53,507 nucleotides of DNA from Okeania hirsuta (GTDB taxonomy: Bacteria; Cyanobacteriota; Cyanobacteriia; Cyanobacteriales; Microcoleaceae). Position 1 is the stretch's first letter, and every line of letters starts with the position of its first letter. The position numbers and the translations under genes are program-made. The DNA lies in contig NZ_RCBY01000026.1 of NCBI RefSeq assembly GCF_003838195.1, positions 1-53,507 of the forward strand, written 5' to 3'. Shown here in pieces: positions 10,042 to 41,979 of this stretch. Under the pieces are notes generated by a model that was not told where the DNA came from, did not search any database, and worked only from the letters and a program-made list of their open reading frames with translations.

Positions 10042-10701
10042 ATGACTTATTGCCTTGGTATTATTACTGAATCTGGTATTTAAATGGCCTCTGACTCTCG
10101 TACTAATGCGGGAGTAGACTATATTTCCACTTACCTGAAGCTATTTGATTTTTCTCTGACTGGAGAGCGGGTTATCCTCATCAGCACTTCTGGAAATTTG
10201 TCAATTACTCAAGGAGTAATCACTGAACTAAAAAAAGACTTCAAGATTTCTGAGGATACTAATCTTCATACTATTCCTACCCTTTACGAAATTGCTCGCT
10301 ATATTGGGAGTAAAATTCGACAGATTCAAGAAAAAGACCGCTCTTGGCTACAAAAGGATCGAATTGACACTGGATGCAGTATATTACTAGGGGGTCAAAT
10401 TAAAGGACAAGATCCTGAATTATTTTTGATTTATTCTCAAGGGAATTGTATTTCTGCTACAAAAGAAACACCTTTTCTACAAATAGGTGAGACTAAGTAT
10501 GGCAAACCAATTTTAGACCGTGCTTTAAGTTTTTATACTTCTTTAGAAGCTGCTGCTAAATGTGCTTTAGTTTCTCTAGATTCTACAATGAAATCTAATC
10601 TTTCTGTGGGACCTCCGATTAATTTGGTGATGTATGAAAAGGATAGTTTTCAAATTCGGCATCGCCTGCAAATGCGTCTGGGCGATCCTTCATTTAGCTA
10701 A
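10042..10701 (+). pseudogene. Anbu / proteasome-type (COG3484) Ntn-hydrolase homolog with an in-frame TAA at 10081-10083
   Basis: ATG at 10042 encodes MTYCLGIITESGI, then TAA, then MASDSRTNAGVDYISTY... in the same frame. The ORF-track start at 10084 would lack the N-terminal Thr1 of this family. Confidence 0.6.
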
Positions 10702-10807
10702 AGTGCGAAAGTTATGGGAGGAGTCTATCAAACAAGTTCTTGATGAAATTCCAGATTTAAACTGATTACATGATTCTCAAGAATCTCAGGAAGATATTTT
10801 GATTGAT

Positions 10808-10875
10808 TGAACAACACAAGGGAGTGGAGGAGTGGGGGAGTACGGGAGTCAGGGAGTGGGGGAGTGGGGGAGAAA
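10808..10875. repeat. STRR heptamer array (GGGAGTG / GGGAGTA units)
   Basis: Direct reading. Confidence 0.8.
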
Positions 10876-11462
10876 TAAACATCAGAATTACCACTTACAC
10901 AGTACAACGTATTTCCGGAATGCTCCGCAAACGAGAACATCTCAAAAAAAATCTGCTGAAAGCTGTTTGCGCAGCATTCCGCAGGAAAAGCTGAACGCTG
11001 AGGTGCTTCTTTAATAATTTAAATGCTACCTAAGTTAAGCATTAATTCATGGTAATTGGTATAAATTAATCGAATTAAGCGATCGCGCAAGTAGAACAGA
11101 ATTCTATCCCTCTAATATAGTTTCACCCCCATCGCGGAGTGTCTTTTTGGACGATAAATCTTGATCGTTGGTAAAAAAATTTAGATGCGTTGTAATACTA
11201 CAAGAACTTGGTTAGGACATTTTTCAATCCTAAAATCCTTTTACAGTTTGTGATTCCCTATTCCCTGATCCCTACTCCCTAGCGCGTAGGGCTATAATTT
11301 TTCAGTTTTCCCCATTTGTGGTTGTCAATAGTATAGTTAGAAAGAATTGGTTAGGACATAGACTAATGACGAATCTTAGACTAGAAAATTTTTTTCCAAC
11401 TGTCCCCTGTTCCCTGTTCCCTGCTATACAATGTAACGGTTGTTTTAATTTTATTATAGAGT

Positions 11463-12758
11463 GTGATTGAACGTTACACCTTGCCCGAAATGGGTGAACT
11501 TTGGACTGAGAATGCCAAGCTAAAAACTTGGTTACAAGTAGAAATAGCTGTCTGTGAAGCTCAGGCAGAACTTGGGTACATACCTGCTGAGGCAGTAGAA
11601 GAAATCAAGGCCAAGGCTAATTTTGACCCAAAGCGGGTTCTCGAAATTGAGGCAGAAGTCCGCCATGATGTGATTGCTTTCTTGACAAATGTGAATGAGT
11701 ATGTTGGTGATGTTGGGCGGTATATTCACTTAGGGTTGACAAGTTCTGACGTTTTGGATACTGCATTAGCATTACAGATGGTTGCGAGTCTGGATCTGTT
11801 GTTGTCATGTGTTGAAGAGTTGGGACAAGCAATTCGCTATCAGGCACAACAGCATCGGGAAACTGTGATGGTAGGTCGTTCCCATGGTATTCATGCGGAA
11901 CCTATAACTTTTGGTTTTAAGTTGGCAGGATGGTTGGCAGAAGTTTGTCGCAACCGCCAGAGATTGGTAAAAATGCGTGATAATATTGCTGTGGGTAAGA
12001 TTTCTGGAGCAGTGGGAACCTATGCAAATATTGACCCACGAGTTGAGGCGATCGCCTGCCAAAAACTGGGACTTCAACCGGATACTGCATCTACTCAAGT
12101 AATTTCACGCGATCGCCATGCTGAGTATGTGCAAACTTTAGCGTTGCTGACTGCTTCTATAGAACGTTTTGCTGTAGAAGTTCGTAACCTTCAACGTACC
12201 GATGTTTTAGAGGTTGAGGAATATTTTTCTAAGCGTCAAAAAGGCTCGAGCGCCATGCCCCACAAACGCAACCCCATTCGTTCGGAAAGGTTAACGGGAA
12301 TGGCGAGAATTGTGCGGGGTCATGCCGTTGCCGCTTTGGAAAATGTTGCTCTCTGGCACGAACGAGATATTTCCCATAGTTCTGTTGAAAGAGTGATTTT
12401 GCCGGATGCTTGCATTTTAACTCATTTTATGCTCAAAGAAACTACTAATTTAGTCAAAAATTTGTTAGTTTACCCAGAAAACATGAAGCGAAATATGAAT
12501 GTTTATGGAGGGGTAATTTTTAGTCAGCGAGTGCTTTTGGCATTAGTAGAAAAAGGCATGATTCGAGAGGATGCTTATCAAATTGTTCAGTCTTGCGCCC
12601 ATCAAGCTTGGAATCAACCAAATGGTAATTTTCAGGATTTAATTTGCAAAAATGAAGAAATTAAAAGTAAGTTATCTGAGGCAGAAATTGCAGCTTGTTT
12701 TGACCCGAAACATCATTTAAAACATTTGGATGATGTGTATCAAAGATTAGGTATTTGA
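11463..12758 (+). CDS. purB: adenylosuccinate lyase
   Basis: 431 aa. GTG start. Fumarate-lyase family signature around SSAMPHKRNP. The N-terminus is typical of PurB. Confidence 0.9.
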   Translation: MIERYTLPEMGELWTENAKLKTWLQVEIAVCEAQAELGYIPAEAVEEIKAKANFDPKRVLEIEAEVRHDVIAFLTNVNEYVGDVGRYIHLGLTSSDVLDTALALQMVASLDLLLSCVEELGQAIRYQAQQHRETVMVGRSHGIHAEPITFGFKLAGWLAEVCRNRQRLVKMRDNIAVGKISGAVGTYANIDPRVEAIACQKLGLQPDTASTQVISRDRHAEYVQTLALLTASIERFAVEVRNLQRTDVLEVEEYFSKRQKGSSAMPHKRNPIRSERLTGMARIVRGHAVAALENVALWHERDISHSSVERVILPDACILTHFMLKETTNLVKNLLVYPENMKRNMNVYGGVIFSQRVLLALVEKGMIREDAYQIVQSCAHQAWNQPNGNFQDLICKNEEIKSKLSEAEIAACFDPKHHLKHLDDVYQRLGI

Positions 12759-13229: not shown

Positions 13230-13295
13230 GGTTGGGTTGAGCGGTAGCAAAACCCAACAAAAAGTTACTGGTTTTGAGTTTGTCTGAATCATGAG

Positions 13296-13560
13296 ATTAT
13301 TTTAGATATTCGCTATGCCACTACAAATAATTTCCTCAACCAAAAATTATACCCTGTAGCAAAATGTGCTTGAAGAAAAGAAGTAGCAGAAAAATTATCA
13401 CAAGTCCAGGCAGATTTAAAAATAATAGGATTAGGTTTAAAAGTTTATGATTGCTATCGACCTCTATCAGTGACAAAAAAGATGTGGGAAGTTTTGCCAG
13501 ATTCTTGTTATTTTGCTAATCCTGAGAAAGGTTCTCGACATAATCGTGGTGCTGCAGTTG
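13296..13560 (+). pseudogene. D-Ala-D-Ala dipeptidase (VanX-like, peptidase M15D) remnant. No start; frameshifted
   Basis: Frame 1 gives EIILDIRYATTNNFLNQKLYP then a stop. A second frame gives LKVYDCYRPLSVTKKMWEVLPDSCYFANPEKGSRHNRGAAV. Both pieces match conserved VanX blocks. Confidence 0.55.
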
Positions 13561-13818
13561 TCGTCTGCTTCTACTTGTTCCTCAATGATGCAAGTTGACC
13601 AGTTTCATAACGTGATGGCAGGTACGAGTATGGCAACGCCGTTTATTACTGGGTTGGTAGCGTTACTGTTGGAAAAGGAGCCGCAGTTAACCCCTGAAGA
13701 AATTAAGCAACGTTTGCATTCAAGTAGTTTTATTCCTGGAAAACCTGTTGGCAGTTTCGACCCAAAATGGGGTTTTGGTTTGATCGATGCTGAAAAATTA
13801 TTGACGTTGGTGAATTAG
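13513..13818 (+). pseudogene. Subtilisin-like (S8) protease C-terminal fragment
   Basis: GTSMATPFITGLVALLLE catalytic-Ser block. No Asp/His part. Overlaps and abuts the VanX remnant. Confidence 0.6.
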
Positions 13819-14729: not shown

Positions 14730-15581
14730 ATGCAAACACTTGGCAATTACGAGCAAAAACTAATATTACTACCTCATCTAGCAACATTAGGTATTGGTAT
14801 CGAAGCAGGGGTACAAACAATCGACACCTATCCCTACTATGTCATCGGTATGCTGCATCTCATCAGTTCTGCTGTTTTGGGAGCAGGAGGTATCTACCAT
14901 GCAGTTTTAGGGCCGAAACAGCTTGATGAGAAAGGTTTTGGCTACGACTGGGAAGATGGCAACAAGATGACTACTATTTTGGGTATTCATCTAGTGCTGT
15001 TGGGGGTGGGAGCATCTCTATTGGTCATTAAAGCAACGGTTTTAGGTGGTATTTACGATCCACTAATAGAACAAGTAAGGTTAATACAGCCTAATCTCGA
15101 TCCCGTAAGAATTTTCGGTTATCTGTTTGGCTTTAGTCCTAATGGTTGGACAATTACTGGCATGGCTAGCGTAGATAATCTCGAAGATGTGGTCGGTGGT
15201 CATGTCTGGGTGAGCCTACTCTGCACTGTTGGTGGTCTATTTCACATTATTTCCAAACCTACGGGTTGGGCAAAACAAATACTAATTTGGTCCGGAGAGG
15301 CTTACTTGTCTTACAGTTTAGGGGCACTTGCGATCGCAGGATTTAGCGTAGCTGTCTTTATCTCCACCAACGAAACTGTTTATCCTAGCGTGTTTTATAG
15401 TCCTATTGGCAGCGACTCTGTGCGAACTGCTCTTGCTACCGTTCATGCTGGATTAGGTTTCCTAGCTTTGCTCGGACATTTATGGCACGCTTACCGAGCG
15501 CGAGCTGCTACTCGTAAAGTATTTTATGGAACGTTCTTTGACTTTATGGCTAAGAATGTTACACCTATTACACCTGCTTGA
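14730..15581 (+). CDS. CP43'/IsiA-like chlorophyll-binding protein lacking transmembrane helix I
   Basis: 283 aa. Begins [10 protein letters not shown] then goes directly into [13 protein letters not shown] (helix II region). No helix-I sequence in any frame upstream. Confidence 0.6.
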
Positions 15582-16661: not shown

Positions 16662-19436
16662 ATGACTGTAACTAAATCAAATCCATTAAAGTTTTTAGGC
16701 TTTTCCACAGATAATAATGTTGATGTTGCGAACTATGTTAGTGATTCCCAAGAACCTTATTCTTGGTGGGCAGGTAATTTTCGCTTTGTTAACTTGTCTG
16801 GAAAATTATTGGGAGCGCACATTGCTCATGCAGGGTTGATCGTACTCTGGGCTGGAGCAATGACTCTGTTTGAGCTATCAAAATTCGATCCTAGTCTAGC
16901 CATGTACGACCAAGGACTGATTTTGCTGCCCCACATGGCGACTCTGGGTATAGGGGTTGGCGCAAATGGTGAAATTATTGATACTTATCCCTACTTTGCT
17001 ATTGGTGTTATCCATCTCGTTAGTTCAGCAATTCTAGGCGCTGGTGGCATTTTCCATGCCGTGCTTGGACCTGACAAACTTGATGAAAAGGGATTTGGCT
17101 ATCAGTGGAATGATGGCAAGAAAATGACTACTATCCTTGGTATTCATCTACTGCTACTGGGGATGGGAGCATTTTTGCTAGTAGCCAAAGCTATGTATTT
17201 TGATGGTTTGTATGACCCGGCGATCGCCAATGTGCGACTGATTACTGAACCCACTCTCAACCCACAGACTATCTTCGGTTACCTCGTCGGTATCACCCCT
17301 GATGGCTGGACGTTGAAGGGTATGGCTGCTGTCAACTCTTTAGAAGATGTAATAGGCGGTCACATTTGGATTGGTAGTATCTGTATTCTGGGTGGTCTCT
17401 GGCATATTAATACTGCTCCTACAAAATGGGCTAAGGGTCTTTTTGTCTGGTCGGGAGAGGCATATCTTGCCTATAGTCAGGCAGCTCTGGCTTATATGGG
17501 TTTTTTCGCAGCCTACTTTGTCTGGGTGAATGATACAGTCTATCCTTCAGTATTTTATGGTCCTGTAGGTGTGACTAATGTTGATGGTACAATCACTCCT
17601 CGCACCTGGCTGATGTTGTTCCAACTCATCTTTGCCTGTCTGCTACTGGCAGGTCACTTTTGGCATGGTCTCAGAGCTAGAGCGATCGCCAGTGGATTTG
17701 TCTTCAGTAATATGAAGTTCAATCCCGGTGCCCTCTATGGAGACACTCAGTTTAATAACGAATCTCTAGTGACTGGTATTGTACAGCCTTTCCAGAACAA
17801 TCCTCAATTGGGTAATTTGGCAACCCCAATTAATTCCAGTCAGCTTACCATCACTTGGGTTAAGAACTTGCCAATTTACCGCAATGGTTTATCTCCTATT
17901 GCACGGGGTCTAGAAATTGGCATGGCTCATGGCTACCTATTATTAGGGCCTTTTCTCAAGCTCGGACCATTGCGTAACACCGACCAAGCTCTTCTGGCTG
18001 GAGGTGGTAGTGCATCTGGCTTAGTAGTGATTTTAAGTATCTGTCTGTTTGTTTATGGGGCTGGAGCAATGACTCTGTTTGAGCTATCAAAATTCGATCC
18101 TAGTCTAGCCATGTACGACCAAGGACTGATTTTGCTGCCCCACATGGCGACTCTGGGTATAGGGGTTGGCGCAAATGGTGAAATTATTGATACTTATCCC
18201 TACTTTGCTATTGGTGTTATCCATCTCGTTAGTTCAGCAATTCTAGGCGCTGGTGGCATTTTCCATGCCGTGCTTGGACCTGACAAACTTGATGAAAAGG
18301 GATTTGGCTATCAGTGGAATGATGGCAAGAAAATGACTACTATCCTTGGTATTCATCTACTGCTACTGGGGATGGGAGCATTTTTGCTAGTAGCCAAAGC
18401 TATGTATTTTGATGGTTTGTATGACCCGGCGATCGCCAATGTGCGACTGATTACTGAACCCACTCTCAACCCACAGACTATCTTCGGTTACCTCGTCGGT
18501 ATCACCCCTGATGGCTGGACGTTGAAGGGTATGGCTGCTGTCAACTCTTTAGAAGATGTAATAGGCGGTCACATTTGGATTGGTAGTATCTGTATTCTGG
18601 GTGGTCTCTGGCATATTAATACTGCTCCTACAAAATGGGCTAAGGGTCTTTTTGTCTGGTCGGGAGAGGCATATCTTGCCTATAGTCAGGCAGCTCTGGC
18701 TTATATGGGTTTTTTCGCAGCCTACTTTGTCTGGGTGAATGATACAGTCTATCCTTCAGTATTTTATGGTCCTGTAGGTGTGACTAATGTTGATGGTACA
18801 ATCACTCCTCGCACCTGGCTGATGTTGTTCCAACTCATCTTTGCCTGTCTGCTACTGGCAGGTCACTTTTGGCATGGTCTCAGAGCTAGAGCGATCGCCA
18901 GTGGATTTGTCTTCAGTAATATGAAGTTCAATCCCGGTGCCCTCTATGGAGACACTCAGTTTAATAACGAATCTCTAGTGACTGGTATTGTACAGCCTTT
19001 CCAGAACAATCCTCAATTGGGTAATTTGGCAACCCCAATTAATTCCAGTCAGCTTACCATCACTTGGGTTAAGAACTTGCCAATTTACCGCAATGGTTTA
19101 TCTCCTATTGCACGGGGTCTAGAAATTGGCATGGCTCATGGCTACCTATTATTAGGGCCTTTTCTCAAGCTCGGACCATTGCGTAACACCGACCAAGCTC
19201 TTCTGGCTGGAGGTGGTAGTGCATCTGGCTTAGTAGTGATTTTAAGTATCTGTCTGTTTGTTTATGGGGCGGTAGTGTTTCAAGGTTCTAGAGAACCAAG
19301 AGGCGTTTTACCGGAGAACCTACAAACTTATCAGGAATGGAGTTTGTTTACCTCTGGTTTTCTCATTGGAGGACTAGGCGGTGTAGTTTTTGCCTGCTTT
19401 ATCCTTATAGAAATCGGGCGAGCGGGAATTTTGTAA
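16662..19436 (+). CDS. IsiA-PsaL fusion protein with an internal in-frame tandem duplication of 403 aa
   Basis: CP43'-like domain followed by a PsaL-like domain (NLATPINSS...[36 protein letters not shown]). Residues from GAMTLFEL to FVYGA occur twice, identical. Confidence 0.75.
16852..19269 (+). repeat. Perfect direct tandem duplication, 2 x 1209 bp, inside the isiA-psaL ORF
   Basis: 16852-18060 is identical to 18061-19269 in my read. Sequence diverges after GTTTATGGGG. Confidence 0.85.
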
Positions 19437-21599: not shown

Positions 21600-22520
21600 C
21601 TAAAACAAAAAAATCATCCGAATAATTCCCACAGTAATAGTGTCATTATCTTCATCATGTTCGGGATTAATAACTACTAAAACTCCCGGATTAATTGAAA
21701 TATTGTCATTAATTTGATAACGATAAAAACCCTCTAAATGCCAAGCTGTATCATCATCATCTGGACCATTATCAGTATCAGTTACTTTAGGTGGATTTCC
21801 AATTACAAAACCAAGCAAACTTCCCTGTTTACCTAAGTCAGTAAATCCTAAAGTAACTGCCCAATTAAAAATAGTTGCTTCATCTCCTTCCTTAACAAGA
21901 CCAACAGATTTTTCAGCATCAGCAAAACTCCATCCAGTCCAACCGGAAACTGTGAAATTATTCAAAGCACGCCAACTTCCTTGAATACCTAAATGATCTG
22001 CGGAAGTGGGAACTAAATTACCAAAGGGTGCATTTGCTCTTCTACTACCTGTTGCTGCTGAGACAAATAACTTTCTTTTTGGATAGTAAGAACGTACATA
22101 AGTAACGCCAAAACGGAGGCGATCGCTTGGTCGAATATCTAGTTGTGCTAAACCTGCATTACTACCATTAAAAAATCCATTACTTTCTGTTGGGTTTTCC
22201 GGATCTCTTGCTAAATATCCTAATGATAAACTGACCGATTTATTAATATTATAAACAACTGTTACTCCAGCACCTCGTGCCCCTTGAGCATAGATAGGAT
22301 TGAAGCGTCCAAACCTAGAAATTGCCCCTGATATTCTCTTTGCAAAAAGTCTGTTGAAGTTATCAGAAACATTCATATTAAACCTACCACCAATAGCATC
22401 AACATGAACTCTAAATTTTTTCCCAATGGGAAAACGATAGAATAATTTACCAATATCAACAGTATTATTAGTATTTCTTTGAAACGCTAAACGAGTCATA
22501 TTTGTTCCAGTTATTGGCAC
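21600..22520 (-). pseudogene. OprB-family cyanobacterial porin, beta-barrel part only (N-terminally truncated)
   Basis: TRLAFQRN...LFYRFPIGKKFRVHV...GAISRFGRFNP blocks. Ends in an aromatic C-terminal residue (F). No SLH or coiled-coil N-terminal region. Confidence 0.55.
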
Positions 22521-22608
22521 TCCATAGGCAACTATCCTCTACAATCAATTTGGCTCACTTCCTGAAGTTACACCTTTTCTAGATGGGATTAAACCAGTTG
22601 TTCTATCC

Positions 22609-22962: not shown

Positions 22963-22988
22963 CTTGACTATGTTATTTTAAACTTGAA

Positions 22989-28786: not shown

Positions 28787-28833
28787 AGGTAGAGATATTT
28801 TCTACTCCCTACTCCCTGGTATAGTTAAATCAA

Positions 28834-29855: not shown

Positions 29856-30143
29856 GTGTCTGTCGAGACTATAGAAAAGCGTTCCACTTCCACAGTCCGT
29901 AAACCTGCACCACGTTATCGTGTTTTACTCCATAACGATGATTTTAATAGTATGGAGTATGTAGTGCAAGCATTGATGAAGACAGTGCCGAGTCTAACTC
30001 AACCCCAAGCTGTCGATATTATGATGGAAGCTCACAGTAATGGTATTGCATTGGTGATTACCTGCGCTTTAGAACACGCTGAGTTTTATTGCGAAAATTT
30101 AAAAAATCAGGGACTAACTAGCACTATAGAACCTGATGAGTGA
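29856..30143 (+). CDS. clpS: ATP-dependent Clp protease adaptor ClpS
   Basis: YRVLLHNDDFNSMEYVVQALMK...QA...IM..AH core. GTG start. Confidence 0.85.
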   Translation: MSVETIEKRSTSTVRKPAPRYRVLLHNDDFNSMEYVVQALMKTVPSLTQPQAVDIMMEAHSNGIALVITCALEHAEFYCENLKNQGLTSTIEPDE

Positions 30144-30204
30144 TTTAATTGTAATATAGAAGCCGAGTTTCTACCTTGAGAAGCTCGGTTTCTCATTTGT
30201 ATAG

Positions 30205-31242
30205 GTGTTGGTAGTGCCTAATTTATCATTTGGCAAAATTGCAAAGTTTTCGGTTTCTATCAGAATAGGAATTTTTATTTTAACATTATTTCTGGGTTGG
30301 ATACCACTAGCAGCACCAATATATTTTTTTGGGCGAGATGCAAATTTAGCGAGTATATTGGCGATCGCTCTATTATATATAGAGTTTATTATTTTAGTCC
30401 AGTTTTGGGGAAAGAAAGTTTATCAACAACCACACCTACTACGTCACTACGGTTTAGAAATAAGTAGGGTCAACTTTCAGAATTTTTTTCAAGGTTTAGG
30501 AATAGGTTTAGTTAGTCTGTTTGGTTTTTTTATTTTAGAAACGTTTCTGGGATGGGTAATATGGCAGTCACCTTCAGCAAAGTTACCTCAATTTATTCTG
30601 GAAGGTTTATTGGTATCTGTGGGTATTGGTTTTGCTGAGGAGTTACTATTTCGAGGGTGGTTATTGGATGAGTTGGAGCGAGACTACAAACCAAAAGTAG
30701 CTTTGTGGGTAAGTAGTATTGTGTATGCCTTACTACACTTTATTAAACCAGTTGAGGAAATTTTGCGGATTTGGTTTCAGTTTCCTGGTTTGGTGTTGTT
30801 AGGTTTAATCTTTGTTTGGGCAAAACGTGGATCAGTTGAAGAAGGAAGAAGGAAGAAGGAAGAAGGAAGAAGGCATCCCCCCTTGCCCCCCTTTGAAAGG
30901 AAGAAGGAAGAAGGCATCCCCCCTTGCCCCCCTTTGAAAGGAAGAAGGAAGAAGTGGATGGTGACTCAAAACCCAACTAATTATCAACACCGTGTAGATA
31001 GCGGGGTATTAAACCCAAAAGAAAAAGATAAATTGACTTATTATCAACAACAATTATTGGGTTTGCCTATTGGTATTCATGCTGGTTTTGTGTGGGGTTA
31101 TTACATTATTAATGTGGGTGGTTTAGTTAAGTATTCTAGTGTAGTTGGAGAGTGGGTAGTTGGGATAAATGGTAATCCTTTAGCGGGTGTAATGGGGTGG
31201 TTATTTTTAGGGGCGATCGCTTTATTTATTCAGCGAAAATGA
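30205..31242 (+). CDS. CPBP-family intramembrane metalloprotease (CAAX protease / Abi domain) with an in-frame STRR insertion
   Basis: EELLFRGWLL and ALLHF motifs. Nucleotides 30841-30957 are a GAAGGAA heptamer array with a duplicated 45-bp unit. It encodes EEGRRKKEEGRRHPPLPPFERKKEEGIPPCPPLKGRRKK without breaking the frame. Confidence 0.7.
   Translation: MLVVPNLSFGKIAKFSVSIRIGIFILTLFLGWIPLAAPIYFFGRDANLASILAIALLYIEFIILVQFWGKKVYQQPHLLRHYGLEISRVNFQNFFQGLGIGLVSLFGFFILETFLGWVIWQSPSAKLPQFILEGLLVSVGIGFAEELLFRGWLLDELERDYKPKVALWVSSIVYALLHFIKPVEEILRIWFQFPGLVLLGLIFVWAKRGSVEEGRRKKEEGRRHPPLPPFERKKEEGIPPCPPLKGRRKKWMVTQNPTNYQHRVDSGVLNPKEKDKLTYYQQQLLGLPIGIHAGFVWGYYIINVGGLVKYSSVVGEWVVGINGNPLAGVMGWLFLGAIALFIQRK
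30841..30957. repeat. STRR heptamer array (GAAGGAA) with a duplicated 45-bp unit, inside the CPBP CDS
   Basis: Direct reading. Confidence 0.85.
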
Positions 31243-31653
31243 ATTGGTATAACCTAGAGGTAGTTATATCATGTCTGGATAATAGCGATCTGGAAAAAAC
31301 TTATCATCTTGCTTCAACAGTAAATCTTTATATTTTCCTTACTCTCCCCTAGGTTTAACGTTTCTTGTGATATTAAAGCTTCTAATATTATGTCCGGATA
31401 AGAGCGTGATAGAACTCCGTTCCGCTTACGCGACCAAAAAAACTTTCTCCTTTTCCTCCTCTTTTTTCTTGCCTCTTCCTTCTTTCTTCCCTCCTGACTC
31501 CTGACTCCTGACTCCTGACTTCTGAGGACTCCGTCATTTATTTATAACTATTCAACCGGACATGATATAACTTCAGAGTTCGGAATGGCCTCATATTATA
31601 TAATAGACATCTCCAGAAAATAAACTTGCTCTTTATTTAACATATCTAATATT

Positions 31654-33027
31654 TTATACAGTTGCAACAGAGGGAGGTTTTGTTTGTGACTGTATGCGTT
31701 TACCTTTCATCAACATTTTTACTCCACCCTTGGGTCCTAAAGTTAGTCCTCGACGTTGGGGTTTTACAGGTTGATTTTCTGCTAATTCCATCTCTAAATT
31801 CGATAATATAGTTGCCAATACCAAACGCATCTCGAAATTTGCTAGTGCCATTCCTAAACAGCGACGACTGCCACCTCCAAAGGGCAAGTATTGATATGGG
31901 GAAAACTGCCTCTCTAAAAATCGCTCTGGCTTAAACTTTTTCGGTTCTGAGTACAAATCTTCTCGTTGGTGAGTCAAATAAATAGAACCCTGAATCATTG
32001 TACCTGCTTCCAAGCTATAACCCTGCAACTCAATAGATTGTTTTGTCCGACGAGGAAATGTCAAAATTGCTACTGGATATATTCGTAAGGTTTCCTGACA
32101 AACTGCTGTAAGATAGGGTAAACGGAAAATTGTCATGGGATCAGCATCTATTTCCAGAGTTGTCAACTCTTCCATCAATTTTTGATATACCTCTGGTTGT
32201 TTGTGAACCCAATAAACTGCCCAAGCAATAGCAGTTGCAGTAGTTTCGTGACCTGCAACTAACATAGTTATCAGCTCATCCCGAATTTCTTGGTCTGTCA
32301 TACCTTGACCTTCTTCATCTCGTGCTAATAGCATTAAGGTAAGGATATCAGTACGATTCGGATCTAATTGAGAGCGACGAGTTGCTATTTCTGTATATAA
32401 AAGTTCATCAAGTTTTTGTTGTTGACACTTATACTTACCCCAAGGACTCCAAGGACCTAGATCCTTTTGCAACCAGGGAAAAAATAATAAACTAGCTCGG
32501 AGTGGAGAGGCTGTGAGTTCGATAAAATCTGCCAACATTGACCTAATTTGTGATAACCGGGGGCTATCATATAGACCAAATATAGCTTGGAGTATCACCT
32601 GAATCGTAATTTCTTGCATCAGCTTACGGGCAATAAATGTTTCACTCACTTTTAAGTTGCTGGCTGCTTCTTTCGTGATGTTACAGATTAACTCACCATA
32701 GTTCCGCATCCTGTCGCCATGAAAGGGAGGCATTAATAATTTGCGTTCTCGGCGGTGGCGATCGCCTTCTAAGGACAACATTGAGTATTCCCCAAAGAAA
32801 GGTTGTAAAATTTTACTACCAGGAGCTTCATACTCATTATTATCCTTTGTCAATATCTCCTGTAAAGCTTGTGGACTGCTGACCATTACAACTTTACCTG
32901 CAGCAGTTATCATGGTAAAAATATCTCCATACTTTTTGGCATAAGATTCAAGAGTATTGAGTGGAGCGAGAACCAATTGCAGTCTCTGAAAAAGCGGTGG
33001 TGTTTTTGGTCCTTTGATTAATTTCAT
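31654..33027 (-). CDS. cytochrome P450
   Basis: Heme-thiolate loop FGGGSRRCLGMALA; EXXR; AGHETT I-helix. Confidence 0.9.
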   Translation of the reverse strand: MKLIKGPKTPPLFQRLQLVLAPLNTLESYAKKYGDIFTMITAAGKVVMVSSPQALQEILTKDNNEYEAPGSKILQPFFGEYSMLSLEGDRHRRERKLLMPPFHGDRMRNYGELICNITKEAASNLKVSETFIARKLMQEITIQVILQAIFGLYDSPRLSQIRSMLADFIELTASPLRASLLFFPWLQKDLGPWSPWGKYKCQQQKLDELLYTEIATRRSQLDPNRTDILTLMLLARDEEGQGMTDQEIRDELITMLVAGHETTATAIAWAVYWVHKQPEVYQKLMEELTTLEIDADPMTIFRLPYLTAVCQETLRIYPVAILTFPRRTKQSIELQGYSLEAGTMIQGSIYLTHQREDLYSEPKKFKPERFLERQFSPYQYLPFGGGSRRCLGMALANFEMRLVLATILSNLEMELAENQPVKPQRRGLTLGPKGGVKMLMKGKRIQSQTKPPSVATV

Positions 33028-33212
33028 ATAGTTACTTGTGAATTTTTGGACTGTTTAATATTAGAAGTTAACAATAGCATTTTATCAGTTTTTTTGTCTC
33101 AAATTCAATGCCCTAGTGTTAGACAAATTTTTATGTTGGCGACTGCCGTTTGCGTAGCATTCTGTAGGAAAATAATTAATAATTAATTATTACCGAAAAA
33201 TTGTGGTATAAA

Positions 33213-33410
33213 GCCTCCAGTTTTAAGGGGATAAAAAGCGGTCGTTTGCGGAGCATGACCTTAGGATGGGATGGCGATCTTCGGAGCGGCTCTGATAAGA
33301 GCGGGTCTCCTCGCCATATCCATGAGACCAAGAGAAGAAAAAATTTCATGATTAGTCAATCCTATCCGTTTTCAAGGAGAGGTAATTCTAAATTCTTAAT
33401 TCTAAATTCT
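33213..33410 (+). repeat. ~195-bp direct repeat, copy 1 (contains CTCTGATAAGAGCGGGTCTCCTCGCCATATCCATGA and AAGGAGAGGTAATTCTAAATTCTTAATTC)
   Basis: About 85% identical to 33527-33726. Partial relatives at 45640-45790 and 5427-5500 (reverse). Confidence 0.7.
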
Positions 33411-33526
33411 TAATTCTTGAACTCTCTTTGGCCAAGTTCTTTACATTGGACAAGTTTTTTCGCACTTTCAGGCGTTTTATCCCCTCAATCCATTTTTTTA
33501 ATCTTTTTTTACCAAATAATTAAGGT

Positions 33527-33726
33527 TTAAAGCCTCTCCTTTGAAGGAGAAACAAGCGGTCCTCTTCGGAGCTTCCCGTAGGGTGGGATGGCGCAATTCG
33601 GGGCAGCTCTGATAAGAGCGGGTCTCCTCACCATATCCATGATACCAAGAGAAGAAAAAATTTTCATGATTAGTCAATCCTATCCGTTTTCAAGGAGAGG
33701 TAATTCTAAATTCTTAATTCTTGAAA
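33527..33726 (+). repeat. ~195-bp direct repeat, copy 2
   Basis: See copy 1. Confidence 0.7.
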
Positions 33727-33779
33727 GATACCCTCTAGTAATTAGTATTAGAAGGTAGAGAGTTGAAGGATCATACAAT

Positions 33780-34724
33780 TCAAATATCTTGTCTATTTCT
33801 AGCATCTAAAAATTTTAATTGTTGATACAACATCCCAATTTTATTTAGCTGAATATCTGCTGCACCTGCCATTCGTAAAGGGTTGCCAATAATACTTTCT
33901 ATTTCTAAAGGTTGTCGTCGCTCATAATCAATTTTCATGCTAGTTAAATAAGGGTTTAACTTGTCAGTATGGTCTAACATATTTTGAATATAACTATTTG
34001 GAATTTCGCACTTACAACTTTTTGCACCCTCCAATACTTCTTGCATTATTTCTGTGATTAAGTTTCTAGTATTAGTATCTCCCATCATTTCATCAGTTCG
34101 AGCATCTAGAATTACTGACAAGCTGTTATAAGGAATATTCCAAACTAATTTTTTCCATCTTTCTTGGAATAAATCTTCACTCAAATTAACTTGTATTCCA
34201 GCACTTTCAAAATCTTGGGAAATTTCACGCATTTTATTAGTAATACCAGCAGGTTGATAATTTGTGGTATATTTTCCGATTCTAATCAAACCATAATCTA
34301 CATGGCGAATATGACCATAACCTATTTTATTAGAAGCAATATTAGATACTCCTCCAATTACTCTTTCCTCACCAACAATTTTGGCTATTTCAGGTTCTGT
34401 ACCCAATCCATTTTGTAAGAGTAAGACAACGTTATTTTCTTGGCACAAAGGTGGGAGTAATTCTGGTAATAAATAGTTTTGCGTTGTTTTTAATGCTACG
34501 AGAATTACATCACATTTTGGCATTTTATTAGTATTGTTATAGGCGTTAATTTGAGGGAGGGTAAAGTCGCCATTTTTGGATTCTATGATTAAGCCATTTT
34601 TGAGAACGTGCTGATAATCACTACGCAGTAAAAAATGAACTTCTAATCCTGCTTTTTGTAGTTTTGCACCGTAAAAACCTCCTAGTGCGCCACTGCCAAT
34701 AATCGCGTAAGTATTTTTTGACAT
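33780..34724 (-). CDS. panE: 2-dehydropantoate 2-reductase (ketopantoate reductase, ApbA/PanE family)
   Basis: N-terminal Rossmann motif AIIGSGALGGFYGAKL. Family-typical length. Confidence 0.75.
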   Translation of the reverse strand: MSKNTYAIIGSGALGGFYGAKLQKAGLEVHFLLRSDYQHVLKNGLIIESKNGDFTLPQINAYNNTNKMPKCDVILVALKTTQNYLLPELLPPLCQENNVVLLLQNGLGTEPEIAKIVGEERVIGGVSNIASNKIGYGHIRHVDYGLIRIGKYTTNYQPAGITNKMREISQDFESAGIQVNLSEDLFQERWKKLVWNIPYNSLSVILDARTDEMMGDTNTRNLITEIMQEVLEGAKSCKCEIPNSYIQNMLDHTDKLNPYLTSMKIDYERRQPLEIESIIGNPLRMAGAADIQLNKIGMLYQQLKFLDARNRQDI

Positions 34725-35398
34725 TTTATTGAACTTAAATTCGACTCTGTTTCTATTTTATTGTAAGCATTTCCTACGGAATGCTGCGCAAACAGCTATT
34801 AGCTGTCAGCTCTCAACAACAAGACTCTCTCATATAGGACAGTGTTTAAATTAATATAGACTTTAAGGGCAAGGGAGCTAACTTTTGCAGTAAGACAATT
34901 AATAAAGCTTTTATCGTAAACTAAAAGCAATAGCTAATAGTTATGACTGACCGTTGAATGCTTCAATAAAAGTTTTATTTAAACCCTGTTATTAAGAGCG
35001 AAGTATTAAATTTTTGTACTTCATATACTTGCATTTTGCTGTATTAAACTCAGCTCTATAATTATTTTGTCTGTTCAAATTTTTCAACTTTAATTTTGTT
35101 ACATGAATATTCTTTCCATTATCCACTTTGAAATTTGTCCTAAAGCAAATCTTCCTGCCAATGCTAGGAAAATATAATACAGTAGATTCCAATTTAATGA
35201 GGTACACCAGTTGTGGGCAAGATGCCCGCACTACAAACATTTAATTGTTAATCTCTGTACTTCTTATGGGAGGAATTTGCTGTAATTTATATTTATCACT
35301 CCAGCTTCAGTTTCTAGAATGTTCTGAACAAAGAAAGATAGAAAAAAATAGCAGGCAAAAACAGTACTAAAACTTTAGTTTTAGTGTTTATAAAAGTT

Positions 35399-36059: not shown

Positions 36060-36890
36060 CATATTTTCTATACCTATAACCTACAACCTGCCATCTACCA
36101 CTTAAGGAAGGATAAGGACAATAAATCATATATTCAGGAATTAGGGATTTTTGAGTTCTAAACGCTACATATCTGTAACGTTATAGTTTTTGTTTCCTAT
36201 ATATAGTGTCTTTACCTAAATATCGATCGCCTAACACCTACCACTAAAGCAAAGGTAGGGATAATAAATCATATATTTAAGAATTAGGGATTTTTAATTT
36301 CTAAACACTACATATCTATAACGTTATAGTTTTTGTTCTCTATATATAGTTTCTTTACCTAAATAGAGTAGGAACAATTAATCATAATATTCAGGAATTA
36401 GGGATTTTTGAGTTCTAAACACTACATATCTGTAACGTTATAGTTTTTGTTTCCTATATATAGTGTCTTTACCTAAATATCGATCGCCTAACACCTACCA
36501 CTAAAGCAAAGGTAGGGATAATAAATCATATATTTAAGAATTAGGGATTTTTAAGTTCTAAACGCTACATATCTGTAACGTTATAGTTTTTGCTCTCTAT
36601 ATATAGTGTACTTGCCTAAATTTTGATAATCTAACACCTACCACTAAAGCAAAGGTAGGGATAATAAATCATATATTTAAGAATTAGGGATTTTTAAGTT
36701 CTAAACGCTACATATCTGTAACGTTATAGTTTTTGCTCTCTATATATAGTGTACTTGCCTAAATTTTGATAATCTAACACCTACCACTAAAGCAAAGGTA
36801 GGGATAATAAATCATATATTTAAGAATTAAGGATTTTTGAGTTCTAAACACTACAGATATGTAACGTTATAGTTTTTGCTCACTATATAT
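36060..36890. repeat. Tandem array of about 6 units of 128-144 bp (two identical 143-bp units at 36488-36773), each with two hairpins
   Basis: Units start CTAACACCTACCACTAAAGCAAAGGTAGGG at 36231, 36487, 36631 and 36774. Each contains CCTACC...GGTAGG and TAACGTTA stems and a TATATATAGTGTCTTTACCTAAAT segment related to the MITE TIR. Confidence 0.85.
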
Positions 36891-36990
36891 AGTAGTTGAA
36901 GCAAAGGGTGCGGACATATCAAAAGCTTAAAACTCAGACAACGCAAGATTTTTCAGTCCTTAGCTCCTTCCTTCTTTCTTTTCTGAACAA
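36888..36990 (+). repeat. Dispersed repeat (copy 2 of the 35399 family)
   Basis: ...AAAGGGTGCGGACATATCAAAAGCTTAAAACTCAGACAACGCAAGATTTTTC + TCCTTC heptamers. Confidence 0.65.
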
Positions 36991-37059: not shown

Positions 37060-37506
37060 TTAACCCTTATTTTTAATCATCATTACATCAATAATATTAG
37101 TAGCTACTGCTTCAGAAATTTCCAAAGCATTATATAACTCATTCAAAAGTTGTTCCTCCTCTTCAGCAAGGTCTCCATCTACTAAAACCAAGTCTGTACT
37201 AACAGCAAAAACTGTTTCCCTTAACTCCTTTGGAAGTTTAGCAACTGCAGCATCAAACAAAGGCTTAATTTCTTGATTTTTAATCATATCGAGAAGACGG
37301 TCTTGCATTTCTGTTTTACGTTCTTTTGGATAATCACTAAACAGTTGCATACGAGAGAAAATATTATTAATACCTTGAGATTCACTCTTAGTAATAACAC
37401 CATCAGCAGCAACAGCAATTAAAGCGATCGCTGCAAAAGCTTCTGCCGGTTCTAATTGAATATCAGTAGCTTGTATTGTTGTTGTTCCTTGATCGAAAAG
37501 ACCCAT
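37060..37506 (-). CDS. TerB-domain (tellurite-resistance TerB-like) protein
   Basis: 148 aa, acidic, helical, with a TerB-like pattern (AAIALIAVAADGVITKSESQ...). Confidence 0.5.
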   Translation of the reverse strand: MGLFDQGTTTIQATDIQLEPAEAFAAIALIAVAADGVITKSESQGINNIFSRMQLFSDYPKERKTEMQDRLLDMIKNQEIKPLFDAAVAKLPKELRETVFAVSTDLVLVDGDLAEEEEQLLNELYNALEISEAVATNIIDVMMIKNKG

Positions 37507-37620
37507 TTTAGTACCTCATTAATGATTTTTTTACCATCTCTATTTTGGAAAAATATTAGGTGTTATTAAATAAGTTTTAGATTGAATCTACAACCTAAAA
37601 TTTACCACCTACTACCTTCT

Positions 37621-38976
37621 TCAATACTTCTCAAAAACTGTTAAATTAGCTTTGAGAAAATCAATAAATTGTCGTGCCGTTCGCCCAGAGCGACCATTAT
37701 ATTTCGTAGCCCATTGTAAAGCTTGATAGTCTAAATCTTCAGGATTTAGATTAATTTTTGCCTGTTTTGCCAGATGTCTAACAATTGTTAAATAAGTATC
37801 CTGGTTAGCAGGTTCAAAAGTTAAAGTTAAGCCAAAGCGATCGCTAAAAGAAAGCTTTTCTTGAACTGTATCCCAATTATGAACCTCATCACTATCTTTT
37901 GGGCGAGGGCGATCGTTAAAAAATTCTCTAATTAAATGCCTTCTATTTGATGTAGCATAGACTACCACATTTGTTGGTCTAGCAGTTAAATTACCCTCTA
38001 AAACAACTTTAAGAGCTTTAAAAGTATCATCATCTTCTTCAAAGGAAAGGTCATCGACAAAGATAATAAATTTTTGTGGAATATCGCGTAATTTTTCTAC
38101 AATTAATGGTAAATCTTTTAGGTTTGATTTAGCCACTTCGACTAAACGAAGATTGCGTTGACTATACTCATTTAATAAGGCTTTTATTAAAGAGGATTTG
38201 CCAGAACCGCGACTACCATAAAGTAATATATTAAGGGCTGAATATCCTGCTAGGAGAAATTCTGTATTTTTGATTAAGGCATCTTTTTGAAATTCATATC
38301 CGACCAATTCTTTTAATTCAACTGGGTCAGGGTAAGTAATAGTAAGTAGTTGACCGTTACGCCATTCAAAGGCAATTGATTCAGCAAATAAACCAGTGCC
38401 ATTATGATGATAATGAGTGGCTAAGGTCTCAATGGCATCTGCCCAATTTTCTAATTTTTTTAACTCGTCGTAGATAGCTTCTTTTTGTTGTGATTGTATT
38501 TCCCACGCAATAGGGGGATTCTCTAATTTAGCTATTGTTTTTACCCACTGACTAATTGTTTTACCACTGCACTGATAAAGATTTTGTAAAATTTGTAAAT
38601 CATGTTTTGCAGCTGCAATTAAATTTGGAGATAGGCTGGTAATATTTATTTTTTGAACTTGTTGACTAAAGGGATTATCATCTTGAATAATCTGAGCAAT
38701 TAGATATTCTTGCCAGGAAATATTTTGACTAGCAATATTTATAAACCAGTTACCATAAGCTTGAAGGCATTCTATAGCAACTCCATCATTTTTAGACAAA
38801 GATTCTAATAATTGGATAAAAGCTTCACCCACTGTTTTTTTTAGAACAGACTGATATAACAATAGAGATGCTATTTGCTGTTGTAAGTTTTGAATTTTGG
38901 CTAACACTTGGGAACCTAAACAAGACATAATTAATGATATGATTGCCTTATTAAATAAAGGATCAGCACTTAGCAC
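37621..38976 (-). CDS. AAA+ ATPase of the DUF815 / COG2607 type
   Basis: P-loop LLYGSRGSGKSSLIKAL; Walker B IIFVDDLSFEEDD. Confidence 0.6.
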   Translation of the reverse strand: MLSADPLFNKAIISLIMSCLGSQVLAKIQNLQQQIASLLLYQSVLKKTVGEAFIQLLESLSKNDGVAIECLQAYGNWFINIASQNISWQEYLIAQIIQDDNPFSQQVQKINITSLSPNLIAAAKHDLQILQNLYQCSGKTISQWVKTIAKLENPPIAWEIQSQQKEAIYDELKKLENWADAIETLATHYHHNGTGLFAESIAFEWRNGQLLTITYPDPVELKELVGYEFQKDALIKNTEFLLAGYSALNILLYGSRGSGKSSLIKALLNEYSQRNLRLVEVAKSNLKDLPLIVEKLRDIPQKFIIFVDDLSFEEDDDTFKALKVVLEGNLTARPTNVVVYATSNRRHLIREFFNDRPRPKDSDEVHNWDTVQEKLSFSDRFGLTLTFEPANQDTYLTIVRHLAKQAKINLNPEDLDYQALQWATKYNGRSGRTARQFIDFLKANLTVFEKY

Positions 38977-39391
38977 TCAGCAATTAGTAGGAGCATTTTT
39001 TTTAGGTTTATAAGGGGATTTCAACTCCTACTAAACTATCTGAAACAATATTTGTTAGAGATTTTAACCCAAACTCAAAAAACTTTATAATAGCTGATAG
39101 CTTACCACTGGATACTTACCTATTTCTTTGGCGTAATGTAAATCTATGTAATTCTATAATAAATTTTACTCTTTGTAGTTATAAACCACTATTTTTTTAC
39201 ATTTACTTAAGATGCAATTTAAGATCGAGAAATATTTCAAAAAATGTTATTGAATAGTTGAAAATTTCATTTTTAATCATAGTTTAATAATTATTGAATC
39301 TTGATTAAGCAATATTAAGTTTTGATAAATTGGCTAGCTATTGCCACAAATAAGCTGTATAAGTTAGTTTTAGTTTTAGGAGTTAATAATA

Positions 39392-39730
39392 ATGACTATA
39401 AATATCGCCATAATAGCAGCGATCGCCTATGGTATATTAGCCATTGTTGGGGGCATTATTGGATATACGAAAGTAGGCAGCAAAATATCTTTAATATCTG
39501 GTAGTATCAGTGGTTTACTACTAATTGTTAGTGGAATTATTCAACTAATGGGCATGAATTGGGGTCTAATATTTTCTACCCTCATTACAACTATTCTAGT
39601 AATTACATTCATTATTCGTTTAGCAAAAACTCGTAAAATGATGCCTGCGGGATTAATGATTTTAACTGGAGTTGCTGCTGTAGCAGTTATGGTTTATGAA
39701 ATTACCATAAACAATTCAGCCACAATTTAA
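39392..39730 (+). CDS. small 4-TM membrane protein (TMEM14/UPF0136-like)
   Basis: GGIIGYTKVGSKISLISGSISGLLL pattern. Four hydrophobic segments. Confidence 0.5.
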   Translation: MTINIAIIAAIAYGILAIVGGIIGYTKVGSKISLISGSISGLLLIVSGIIQLMGMNWGLIFSTLITTILVITFIIRLAKTRKMMPAGLMILTGVAAVAVMVYEITINNSATI

Positions 39731-40185
39731 AAAGAAACGTAAGTATTTAGCCGTCAGCTTTCAGCTCCATTAGAACTAATGACTATAGCCTTTAAAGCAG
39801 AAGTTACCATTGACAGATTTTATCTAATTAAAAATATGAATTAAAAGTTTCCCTAGTAACTTCTAAAGTCTTAAAAAATGCTTACTTCATTTATTAATCA
39901 AGATGAGAGCTGACCACTAATCACTGTTTGTGGAGCATTCAGGCACGGAAATCCTTATACCAATTTCATAAACTTGAGCTACTTAGGTTTGGAGTAGTCA
40001 GTAGTCAGTAGTCAGTAGTCAGGAGGTAAGGTGAGTAGCCTTACTTTTTGAATTTGGTATTACAAAGAAACAAAGAATATGGAAGAGATAAAAAAGTAGA
40101 AACTTGCTCAATAGACATATAGATATCTCCAGAAAAGAGATAACAGGTAACAGGAAGAAATAATAGAAATCATCAATTATTTCTC

Positions 40186-40240
40186 CCTACTCCCCTACTC
40201 CCCTACTCCCTGCTCCCTACTCCCTACTCCCTAAATTGGG
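40186..40240. repeat. STRR array (CCCTACT heptamers)
   Basis: Direct reading. Confidence 0.8.
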
Positions 40241-40342
40241 ATTAATCAACCCATTAGCCGTACCAAAAAGATTAATTGGACTCTTACCATCAGTAATTAA
40301 AACACTCTGAAGACCAAGCCCCTACAACAACCTCGCCTGCAT

Positions 40343-41979
40343 TTATGGGCCAGCTTGAGCGATCGCCCGAATTGTCTCAGCCCCCAAAGCCTCCACTTTT
40401 TGCTGAAACTCAGTAGCAGTAATTTCAGCCATTTGCCTTGCCTTCTCAATCTCTAAATTATTCAGTGTCTGCTGATGGGCTAACTCAGTCTCCTGACGCG
40501 CCCTCAACTGAGCCATCTCAGCCTCATGGCGAATCCGTGCTGCTTCTACTTCCTGCTGCGCCAAATTCACCGCCAACTGGCCTTGAAAAGGAGATAACAT
40601 ATAAGCTTGAGGTCCATTGACTAATTTTAGTTCCCCACTTTGAACATCCCGTACATATATACCTTCATTTTTGTCTAGGGGAATAGCCTGAAGTTTTTCT
40701 AATACTTCTAATTCCACTGGGGGAATATAATCTCTTGGCCCAGTAATCATCCATAAATCTCCTGGTTGCCGAGTAATAACGTTTGCTCCTGTTCCCTCGG
40801 TGAAAGTTTCCTCAACTCTGATTAGGAGTGCTTCTTGTTCACCAAGAATATAGACCTTTTTAATTCCTGTTTCTAAATCTTCTCCTGGGTGCAAAAAGAA
40901 AGATGTTCTGCCCTGACGCACTTCTTTCATACCCCACTGCGGTTTACCATCTGCATCTATGGGATTAGTTACTATGCACCATTCGCGATCGCTTAAAGTA
41001 GTGATTTTGACTTCTCCCACTACTTCTTCATAAACGTCGGGAATATGAATTTCAGCATCTGCAAAAGTAACTAACTATTCATATCCCGCTTTGCGTTGCT
41101 GACCAAAAATATCAGTAAAAGTCCGTTTTGCTTTTAGATGTAGTGCTTGACGTTCGGTTAATACATAGGCATCAATAGTATCGACAATTTCTTCATCTAC
41201 TCCAGGCAAATAAGCACCTTCTTCCCTGACCAACCATTATTCCCCAGTTCTACGTCTGTTACCTTGACGATCTATACAATTTTGTCGTGCCAGCAGTCGT
41301 AAGGCTTGGTTAGGTTTAATTATTTTAGCTATAACTGTGACTACCACTTCAACTTCTACCCTGGGAGTGTAAGTTCCTGGCCCCTCAAATAACCATTCAT
41401 CCCCTGTCGTACGAGTGACAGTTTGAGACTCTCCTGCAACGATAACTGTATCAGTAAAATCTCGTATTGCTTTGAGACGTAGAGTTTGGTTTGTGTCAAT
41501 TACTTGTAGTTGAGTTACATCTTCTTCGAGTATTTCTCCTGGATATAGTGGGAAAGGGTCTTGAGCAAAGCGAATTTCCAGATCGCCATATTTGAGTCTA
41601 ATTTAACCATACTCATCGGCCACAAGTTGATCTGAACTATAGCAATGTGCGCTGGCATATTTACACATTATTTTTTGTACACCTTTTCTAAAATGCACTT
41701 TGAACTGGGCCTTGTAAATACCTGAGCGCTCATTGCTATATTTCTTAGTACAGGGTTAGCTGCTACACAATAATGGCGAGGTGGAACTACAATTGTCAGT
41801 TGTGGTTGTCAGACTAACCTTTCTGCATCTCCAAGGGTAATGGTTTGAGGGCCTATTTCTAGTCTGATAACACCAGTGTTATTGTCAAGAACATGAATAT
41901 ACTGTTGTGGCTTCAGGAGAATTATACCATTGTTCTCTATTGTAATTGGATATTCTGTGGTACTTTTTATTTTACTCAT
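40343..41979 (-). pseudogene. Major vault protein (MVP) homolog, pseudogenized by four in-frame stops and a 103-bp inverted-repeat insertion
   Basis: Reconstructed frame: MSKIKSTTEYPITIENNGIILLKPQQYIHVLDNNTGVIRLEIGPQTITLGDAERLV*QPQLTIVVPPRHYCVAANPVLRN [insertion] [33 protein letters not shown]...[22 protein letters not shown]...TGE*WLVREEGAYLPGV...KAGYE*LVTFADAEIHIPDVYEEVVGEVKITT... This is MVP-repeat signature throughout. The C-terminus ends TIRAIAQAGP like the vault cap helix. Confidence 0.75.
41638..41740. mobile_element. 103-bp insertion with 16-bp imperfect TIRs (TATAGCAATGTGCGCT / AGCGCTCATTGCTATA) interrupting the MVP reading frame
   Basis: MVP homology is continuous across it once it is removed. 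Its length is not a multiple of 3. Confidence 0.55.

Follow-up and report, generated by a model that had tools for sequence, protein, structure and literature searches.

Three unrelated genes on a single contig of the cyanobacterium Okeania hirsuta are interrupted by in-frame stop codons: a homolog of the proteasome-type peptidase Anbu, a major vault protein (MVP) homolog, and a eukaryotic-type eEF1A-like gene. The stretch analyzed here, which we refer to as the window, is one entire contig of 53,507 bp (NZ_RCBY01000026.1, assembly GCF_003838195.1), and our results cover this 53.5-kb window and its syntenic loci. We propose that the three genes are very probably decaying by ordinary mutation in a free-living O. 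hirsuta with a Trichodesmium-like genome. In this process, lesions would arise as single-base nonsense changes, template-switch changes at quasi-palindromes, a 1-bp insertion, the insertion of a miniature inverted-repeat transposable element (MITE), and in-frame or kilobase-scale deletions. After the split between O. hirsuta and its sibling Okeania, which keep intact copies, purifying selection would have maintained MVP and Anbu for most of the elapsed time. Only recently would they have lost their function, with lesions accumulating stepwise: certain lesions occur in a sister lineage too, others are found in O. hirsuta alone, and others still vary among strains.

Source organism and strains compared

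Okeania hirsuta belongs to the Oscillatoriales (Microcoleaceae) and is sister to Trichodesmium. The window is assigned to this species by its proteins and its DNA: the products of purB, the eEF1A-like gene, the Vault-fragment open reading frame (ORF) and the Anbu ORF are exact members of Okeania hirsuta or Okeania clusters (NCBI, UniRef), and block by block its DNA is 98.4–100% identical to contigs of GCA_010672745, GCA_010672625, GCA_003838225 and GCA_010672505. GCA_003838225 is itself O. hirsuta and serves as the outgroup that roots the Trichodesmium tree (PMC9189399). As references we used two intact orthologs each for MVP (L014 and L015) and Anbu (L016 and L017). Deletions were read against a close relative (L021), and the MVP lesions were ordered against Okeania sp. 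GCA_010692685 (L098), a sister lineage that is 99.2% identical.

Three disabling alleles of Anbu

10042–10810, plus strand: Anbu (proteasome-type peptidase) pseudogene; PF00227, 26.9 bits (cutoff 22.4)
10081–10083, plus strand: TAA in place of Val14 (GTA); intact orthologs have Val
10691, plus strand: +1 C frameshift in codon 217; absent in GCA_010672625, and its removal restores the frame
10763–10765, plus strand: TGA in place of Trp241 (TGG), by codon comparison with L016 and L017

The Anbu gene retains the signature of the proteasome fold (PF00227) and is 89–93% identical to intact 255-aa orthologs annotated as 'putative proteasome-type protease'. Its frame opens at ATG 10042 with MTYCLGIITESGI, runs into the TAA at 10081–10083, and is followed directly by a second ATG at 10084. 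The stop at 10081 had been noted in an earlier reading of the letters alone (hereafter the sequence-only reading), and it is real, recurring in other NCBI assemblies. The same reading had proposed that re-initiation at the second ATG would yield a product without the catalytic threonine. Indeed, this residue directly follows Met1 in an MTYCLG start that is encoded 5' of the stop and is missing from the ORF restarting at 10084, and gene callers predict precisely that 205-aa ORF.

Upon close examination of codon 14, we noticed that the change from valine to stop is a double substitution (GT>TA) that converts ATTGTAAT into the perfect palindrome ATTTAAAT (10078–10085). The strain GCA_003838225 has GTA at codon 14 but is interrupted at codon 58, where an AAG>CTT replacement creates a TGA. 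This replacement (10206–10216) corresponds to an inversion of the spacer in ACTC-AAG-GAGT. Because both multi-base changes lie in small inverted repeats, each is best read as a single template-switch event. Several recent changes that perfect or invert small inverted repeats suggest that template-switch mutagenesis may be frequent.

Over codons 1–216, the window lineage has accumulated about 35 synonymous and 5 missense changes relative to L016 and L017, and the out-of-frame tail contains 6 missense, 1 nonsense and 7 synonymous changes. The small number of missense relative to synonymous changes in codons 1–216 indicates that Anbu was constrained until recently. Several knockout alleles now segregate, as we find three distinct disabling alleles among near-identical strains.

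Staggered lesions in the MVP gene

41979–40217, minus strand: MVP pseudogene; in Okeania sp. SIO3I5 its positional ortholog is intact and 926 aa long
41811–41809, minus strand: stop at L57 (TTA>TGA); young, absent in L098
41741–41641, minus strand: 101-nt frameshifting insertion consisting of a 99-nt MITE, bounded by 16-nt terminal inverted repeats, and its TA target duplication; young, absent in L098
41605–41603, minus strand: stop at Q92 (CAA>TAA); older, shared with L098
41239–41237, minus strand: stop at E214 (GAA>TAA); older
41077–41075, minus strand: stop at W268 (TGG>TAG); older
40595–40585, minus strand: deletion junction; about 316 codons are lost in frame, taking away the shoulder domain and some of the cap helix
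40345–40343, minus strand: stop at E883 (GAA>TAA); young, absent in L098
40324–40322, minus strand: stop at E890 (GAG>TAG); older

The MVP homolog does carry premature stops, as the sequence-only reading had held, but they number six rather than the four it counted, all of them in frame and on the minus strand. Each is a single-base change from a codon found in both intact orthologs, the SIO3I5 copy and a second, Okeania-like one, and the fragmentation of the ORF is identical in four other assemblies. Comparison with L098 places the lesions in order. This sister lineage has four of the stops and the deletion in common with the window, and does not have the stops at L57 and E883 or the MITE. 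Because the lesions are thus partly shared with L098 and partly absent there, they must have been staggered in time. The window contains no further copies of this MITE.

What remains of the gene is readily recognizable. The Vault repeat domains are present (PF01505, PF17794 and PF17796; Pfam Vault, Vault_2 and Vault_4), whereas about 316 codons are missing relative to L014 and L015, which leaves no shoulder domain (PF11978) and an incomplete cap helix. The remainder is 74–76% identical to intact Okeania MVPs. Filamentous cyanobacteria commonly have full-length homologs (860–930 aa, with each of the five Vault Pfam domains), which carry the annotation 'colicin uptake protein', and MVP homologs in Oscillatoriales have already been described (bioRxiv 10.1101/872010; PMC3762200). 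The gene order around the intact MVP of SIO3I5 matches that of the window: WD40 kinase, MVP, Tmemb_14, DUF815, TerB, thioesterase.

MVP was evidently functional for a long time. The ratio of non-synonymous to synonymous substitution rates (dN/dS), a comparison that the sequence-only reading had proposed, is 0.14–0.17 between the window copy and the intact orthologs, which is similar to the 0.23 between the two intact genes. These values point to a long functional history in which most of the divergence predates inactivation. Constraint nevertheless appears relaxed in the more recent record, where it is visible in two kinds of change. At sites at least 95% conserved among 57 homologs, the window lineage has 13 replacements, compared to 2 and 4 in the intact lineages. 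Moreover, of the 12 differences from L098, 8 are missense and 2 nonsense; the other 2 are synonymous and lie beside a missense change in each case. Strain polymorphism was uninformative for dN/dS, with no single-nucleotide polymorphism (SNP) in MVP and one in the eEF1A-like gene.

In the window, a Ser/Thr-kinase-WD40 gene (42043–44421, minus strand) and genes for Tmemb_14, DUF815 (AAA) and TerB proteins (within 37060–39730) neighbor MVP. The order kinase-MVP-Tmemb_14-DUF815-TerB may be a conserved neighborhood of cyanobacterial vault genes. We also observed that a GTCACC>GTTATC change, which combines a synonymous Val change with Thr>Ile, occurred twice in MVP after the split from L098 (41446–41441 and 41871–41866, minus strand). 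An obvious palindromic template exists at only one of the two sites, where the change creates ATAACAC-TG-GTGTTAT (41874–41857, minus strand). Restriction-site avoidance does not account for this pair, as GTCACC occurs 8 times in the window against an expectation of 10.8.

A eukaryotic-type eEF1A-like gene with a single stop

23560–24957, plus strand: eukaryotic-type eEF1A-like gene with GTP_EFTU, D2 and D3/eEF1A_C domains and one in-frame TGA
23641–23643, plus strand: TGA at a conserved Gly (presumably GGA) in the motif TTGHLIYKCG, by comparison with eukaryotic eEF1A

The third interrupted gene differs from the other two in that it has no ortholog. The TGA at 23641, which the sequence-only reading had picked out, was borne out by the same base in five other assemblies, GCA_010672645 included. 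Past it, the ORF stays open for 436 codons. The best matches of the protein in the PDB are mammalian and yeast eEF1A (340 and 327 bits), followed by archaeal aEF1A (237–280 bits) and then by HBS1, eRF3, CysN and EF-Tu (59 bits). Among 5.8 billion proteins, its only close relatives are Okeania copies, the other top matches being eukaryotic eEF1A at 38–46% identity. We found no relative above 46% identity in the protein database, GTDB species genomes, viral contigs or JGI metagenomes. A search of metagenomes with an exact DNA pattern returned nothing closer, and a metagenome protein scan gave only eukaryote-like matches at 39–40%.

In sibling Okeania, whose tldD protein is 96–97% identical, the permease-tldD interval is about 1 kb long and does not contain the eEF1A-like gene, and tblastn of the protein against 80 tldD-centered loci of related cyanobacteria gave no match. 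The gene has the highest GC content at third codon positions in the window (GC3 of 0.44) and is flanked by debris of MITEs and insertion sequences (IS). Taken together, these features indicate that it is probably a recent foreign acquisition. A literature search for eEF1A in Okeania or other bacteria returned nothing relevant.

Within the GTPase domain, G1 is kept (GHAGSGKS). By contrast, G3 reads DVPHA, having lost DxxG and the catalytic His, and the NKxD of G4 is replaced by NQMD. To judge from a neutral simulation (200 runs), decay to 42% identity yields about 14 stops, and never fewer than 5; the gene shows a single stop and no frameshift. This discrepancy suggests that its divergence took place under selection for an open frame, either in the donor or in Okeania, and that the stop would be recent. 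The remainder of the gene, 436 or 414 aa, is publicly annotated as 'GTP-binding protein', a label on a truncated ORF that our analysis flags.

Gene content and debris in the window

2065–2241, minus strand: PEP-CTERM orphan C-terminal fragment; Pfam support
13374–13595, plus strand: VanX-like (Peptidase_M15) fragment; Pfam support
13474–13815, plus strand: subtilase (Peptidase_S8) fragment; Pfam support
14730–15581, plus strand: isiA/CP43-like paralog of 283 aa with an in-frame N-terminal deletion of 83 codons
21600–22520, minus strand: OprB porin stub, the C-terminal 306 aa; SLH domain and N-terminal portion of the barrel missing
22532–22616: chromate-transporter remnant of 85 nt, by blastn against L021
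22612–22977, minus strand: N-terminal stub of an ABC permease, by blastn against L021, which holds the intact operon

Intact genes with Pfam support (n = 24) make up about 50% of the window, and roughly ten decayed genes leave recognizable debris over a further 12% or so. The rest is made up of intergenic DNA and small hypothetical ORFs, along with repeats (MITE-like families, heptamers and 143-nt tandem units). The intact set includes priA, purB, a group-2-like sigma factor, two isiA-type genes, a phycobilisome (PBS) linker, tldD, clpS, a P450, panE, a DEAD-box helicase and rimO, and its members terminate with all three stop codons, TAA, TAG and TGA. In line with the earlier statement that the core genes are full length, the domain models of priA, purB, the sigma factor, the helicase, rimO and tldD are covered essentially end to end.

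Most of the fragments that the sequence-only reading had listed also stand. In a targeted Pfam scan (n = 10), the VanX-like, subtilase and PEP-CTERM fragments found support, whereas the putative transposase fragment (23108–23341) gave only weak zinc-ribbon matches. The isiA paralog is indeed shortened, and its length is polymorphic: one strain keeps 366 aa. Truncation of the porin and the ABC permease follows from synteny with L021, in which the counterpart of the porin stub is an intact SLH-OprB porin of 557 aa. Relative to L021 12057–20583, about 7 kb are absent at 21600–22977, and the two stubs, of porin and permease, mark where the deletions end. Lost are the 5' half of the porin, a substrate-binding protein, the ABC ATPase, most of the chromate transporter and the 3' part of the 266-aa permease. 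The notion of genes disabled by substitution-type lesions was therefore too narrow, as a frameshift, a MITE insertion and kilobase-scale deletions also contribute.

Repeats and strain polymorphism

Three further observations concern tandem repeats. The isiA(CP43')-psaL fusion gene (16662–19436, plus strand) encodes 924 aa here and 521 aa in other strains, owing to an in-frame tandem duplication of 1,209 nt whose copies begin at 16849 and 18058; the duplication could be real or an assembly artifact. Between the thioesterase and TerB genes (36087–36907) lies a tandem array of at least 4 copies of a roughly 143-nt unit, 85–89% identical, in an interval that is unalignable in several strains. An OmpA-family gene (50683–51675, minus strand) contains three 99-nt (33-codon) tandem repeats at 51179–51471. 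In addition, heptamer repeats, (CCCTACT)n, occur beside the 5' end of the eEF1A-like gene (23450–23489), at the 3' end of the MVP pseudogene (40210–40249) and at a third site (45775–45814), and a similar aaataattgatgattt segment follows the first two of these arrays.

Strain polymorphism is highly uneven along about 25700–35000, which suggests imported or recombined segments. The P450 gene shows 85 synonymous and 112 non-synonymous strain differences, and the gene for an AMIN protein 39 and 37, whereas priA, purB, the helicase and MVP show none. In GCA_003838225, the P450 gene is split by a strain-specific CAG>TAG change.

Weighing ordinary decay against its alternatives

The comparisons described above show that the lesions are real, which codons were ancestral, that intact orthologs and synteny exist, and in which order the lesions arose; from them we infer that the decay is neutral and that the whole genome would resemble this window. 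Several points weigh against this account. It rests on one window, from which the extension to the genome is extrapolated. Because the eEF1A-like gene is without an ortholog, its loss of function is read solely from the stop and the degenerate GTPase motifs, and a truncated or read-through product may still be made from it. Apart from the MITE, there are no small frameshifting indels in 1.65 kb of aligned MVP or in the 1.4-kb frame of the eEF1A-like gene. Finally, the MVP stops are numerous. The neutral ratio of nonsense to missense changes for this sequence is 0.06–0.08 under uniform, transition-biased and empirical spectra, and 0.12 if only GC>AT changes are allowed. From at most 25–29 derived missense changes, about 0.6–2.3 stops are thus expected, and six are seen. 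Relative to missense changes, nonsense changes appear 3–6 fold over-represented (conditional binomial p ~0.002–0.02; Poisson p ~0.03 at the largest expectation) in a test that is post hoc, rests on small counts, and was applied to a window picked for its stops. The surplus appears to be an unexplained, modest excess and not a result.

If the excess were genuine, it could reflect selected silencing, in which, after a first lesion, truncated subunits of the self-assembling MVP cage or Anbu ring would be costly or toxic, so that further upstream nonsense changes would be favored. We regard this as unlikely, though deserving of some weight. Only 13 of the derived missense changes that accompany the six MVP stops fall at conserved sites, and the Anbu polymorphisms among strains are skewed in the same direction, comprising 2 nonsense changes, 1 frameshift and 2 missense changes but no synonymous one (with 4 substitution events, 2 or more nonsense changes have a probability of 0.016). 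Selection for shutting off defective subunits, or for loss of the gene, would also explain the three independent Anbu knockout alleles. In one variant of this idea, the loss of Anbu would itself be adaptive, which would account for several independent knockout alleles. Selected silencing is compatible with ordinary decay. Yet the recent phase of MVP, with 2 nonsense changes among 9 events (p ~0.08), fits neutrality, and once one early stop is in place, later downstream stops are not selectable. The toxicity of truncated subunits is, moreover, hypothetical. A broader form of the proposal would hold that selection fixes nonsense changes in dispensable, self-assembling proteins several-fold faster than missense changes or frameshifts, and that the eEF1A-like gene was recently captured from a eukaryote-type or other donor and remained open until the very recent TGA. 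As a whole, we think it improbable to about the same degree.

Genome erosion of the kind found in host-restricted or symbiotic Nostocales, as the sequence-only reading had concluded, is very improbable. Its observation of erosion survives: three pseudogenes are decaying, about 12% of the window is debris, MITEs and short repeats are abundant, and the core genes are intact. The attribution to a symbiotic member of the Nostocales does not, and our analysis removes this wrong inference. The organism is O. hirsuta, of the Oscillatoriales, and Okeania is a free-living benthic marine genus that is not known to be a host-restricted symbiont; the names of the Okeania assemblies likewise point to environmental or culture collections. 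A similar picture is found in Trichodesmium, which is free-living and has a growing, not a shrinking, genome (PMC3141437).

Equally hard to sustain is the idea that the genes have stayed functional through translation of their stops (stop-codon reassignment, suppression, insertion of selenocysteine or programmed read-through). The eEF1A-like TGA invites it, as it falls exactly at a conserved Gly, is followed by C and precedes the long open frame; TGA followed by C is a weak termination context. However, no stable or selenocysteine insertion sequence (SECIS)-like hairpin follows this TGA (z = −0.84), and all three stop codons occur in frame in the pseudogenes while also terminating intact genes. 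MVP and Anbu carry frameshifts, the MITE and a large deletion, the recent changes in MVP are nearly all missense or nonsense, and the stops are polymorphic between strains. Given the terminator use, the missing hairpin, the frameshifts, the deletions and the polymorphism, we reject reassignment, selenocysteine and read-through as a general explanation.

Sequencing or assembly errors have practically no chance of explaining the stops, because the same bases recur in 4–5 separately assembled genomes, one of which, GCA_003838225 (cited to Moss et al. 2018), belongs to another accession series than the rest, and because the strain differences are structured, with alternative lesions within one gene.

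Comparison with known systems

The pattern is largely an ordinary one, since pseudogenes are well known from Trichodesmium, the sister genus. The orphan eukaryote-type eEF1A gene and the possible nonsense excess are modest leads beyond it. The loci also provide staged, strain-resolved cases of gene death, brought about by nonsense changes, template switches at quasi-palindromes, the insertion of a MITE and deletions.

Each of the three genes can be set beside its intact counterparts. The window MVP shares the Vault repeat domains with cyanobacterial MVP homologs, but this copy is dead, with six stops, the MITE and no shoulder domain. The window Anbu shares the proteasome-fold Pfam match and the N-terminal M-T start with its family; unlike the intact 255-aa orthologs, this copy has a stop at codon 14, a frameshift at 217 and a stop at 241. 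The eEF1A-like gene resembles eukaryotic eEF1A in its three-domain architecture and length, and differs from it in its cyanobacterial host, its in-frame TGA and its degenerate G3 and G4 motifs.

At the level of genomes, 'Nostoc azollae' 0708 is reportedly an eroding symbiont genome with many pseudogenes. The window shares with it pseudogenes, mobile-element debris and retained housekeeping genes. However, 'Nostoc azollae' is an obligate, vertically transmitted symbiont of the Nostocales, whereas O. hirsuta is a free-living member of the Oscillatoriales. IS elements are reportedly implicated in the formation of N. azollae pseudogenes (PMC4369082). The lesions here, unlike those IS-linked ones, are point substitutions, a MITE and deletions.

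The closer parallel is Trichodesmium. Free-living Trichodesmium erythraeum has the highest non-coding fraction among 58 cyanobacteria, together with numerous pseudogenes (PMC3141437), and about 60% of the Trichodesmium genome is coding (PMC4143802). Our literature search found no description of pseudogenes in Okeania. In both organisms the core functions are intact amid pseudogenes and repeats, and the coding fraction in Trichodesmium compares with about 50% intact coding sequence and about 12% debris in the O. hirsuta window; the Trichodesmium pattern is known at the level of the genome, and that of O. hirsuta from this one window. The pseudogene-rich, low-coding state of Trichodesmium may thus extend to its benthic sister genus Okeania, in which case it would be older than the pelagic lifestyle.

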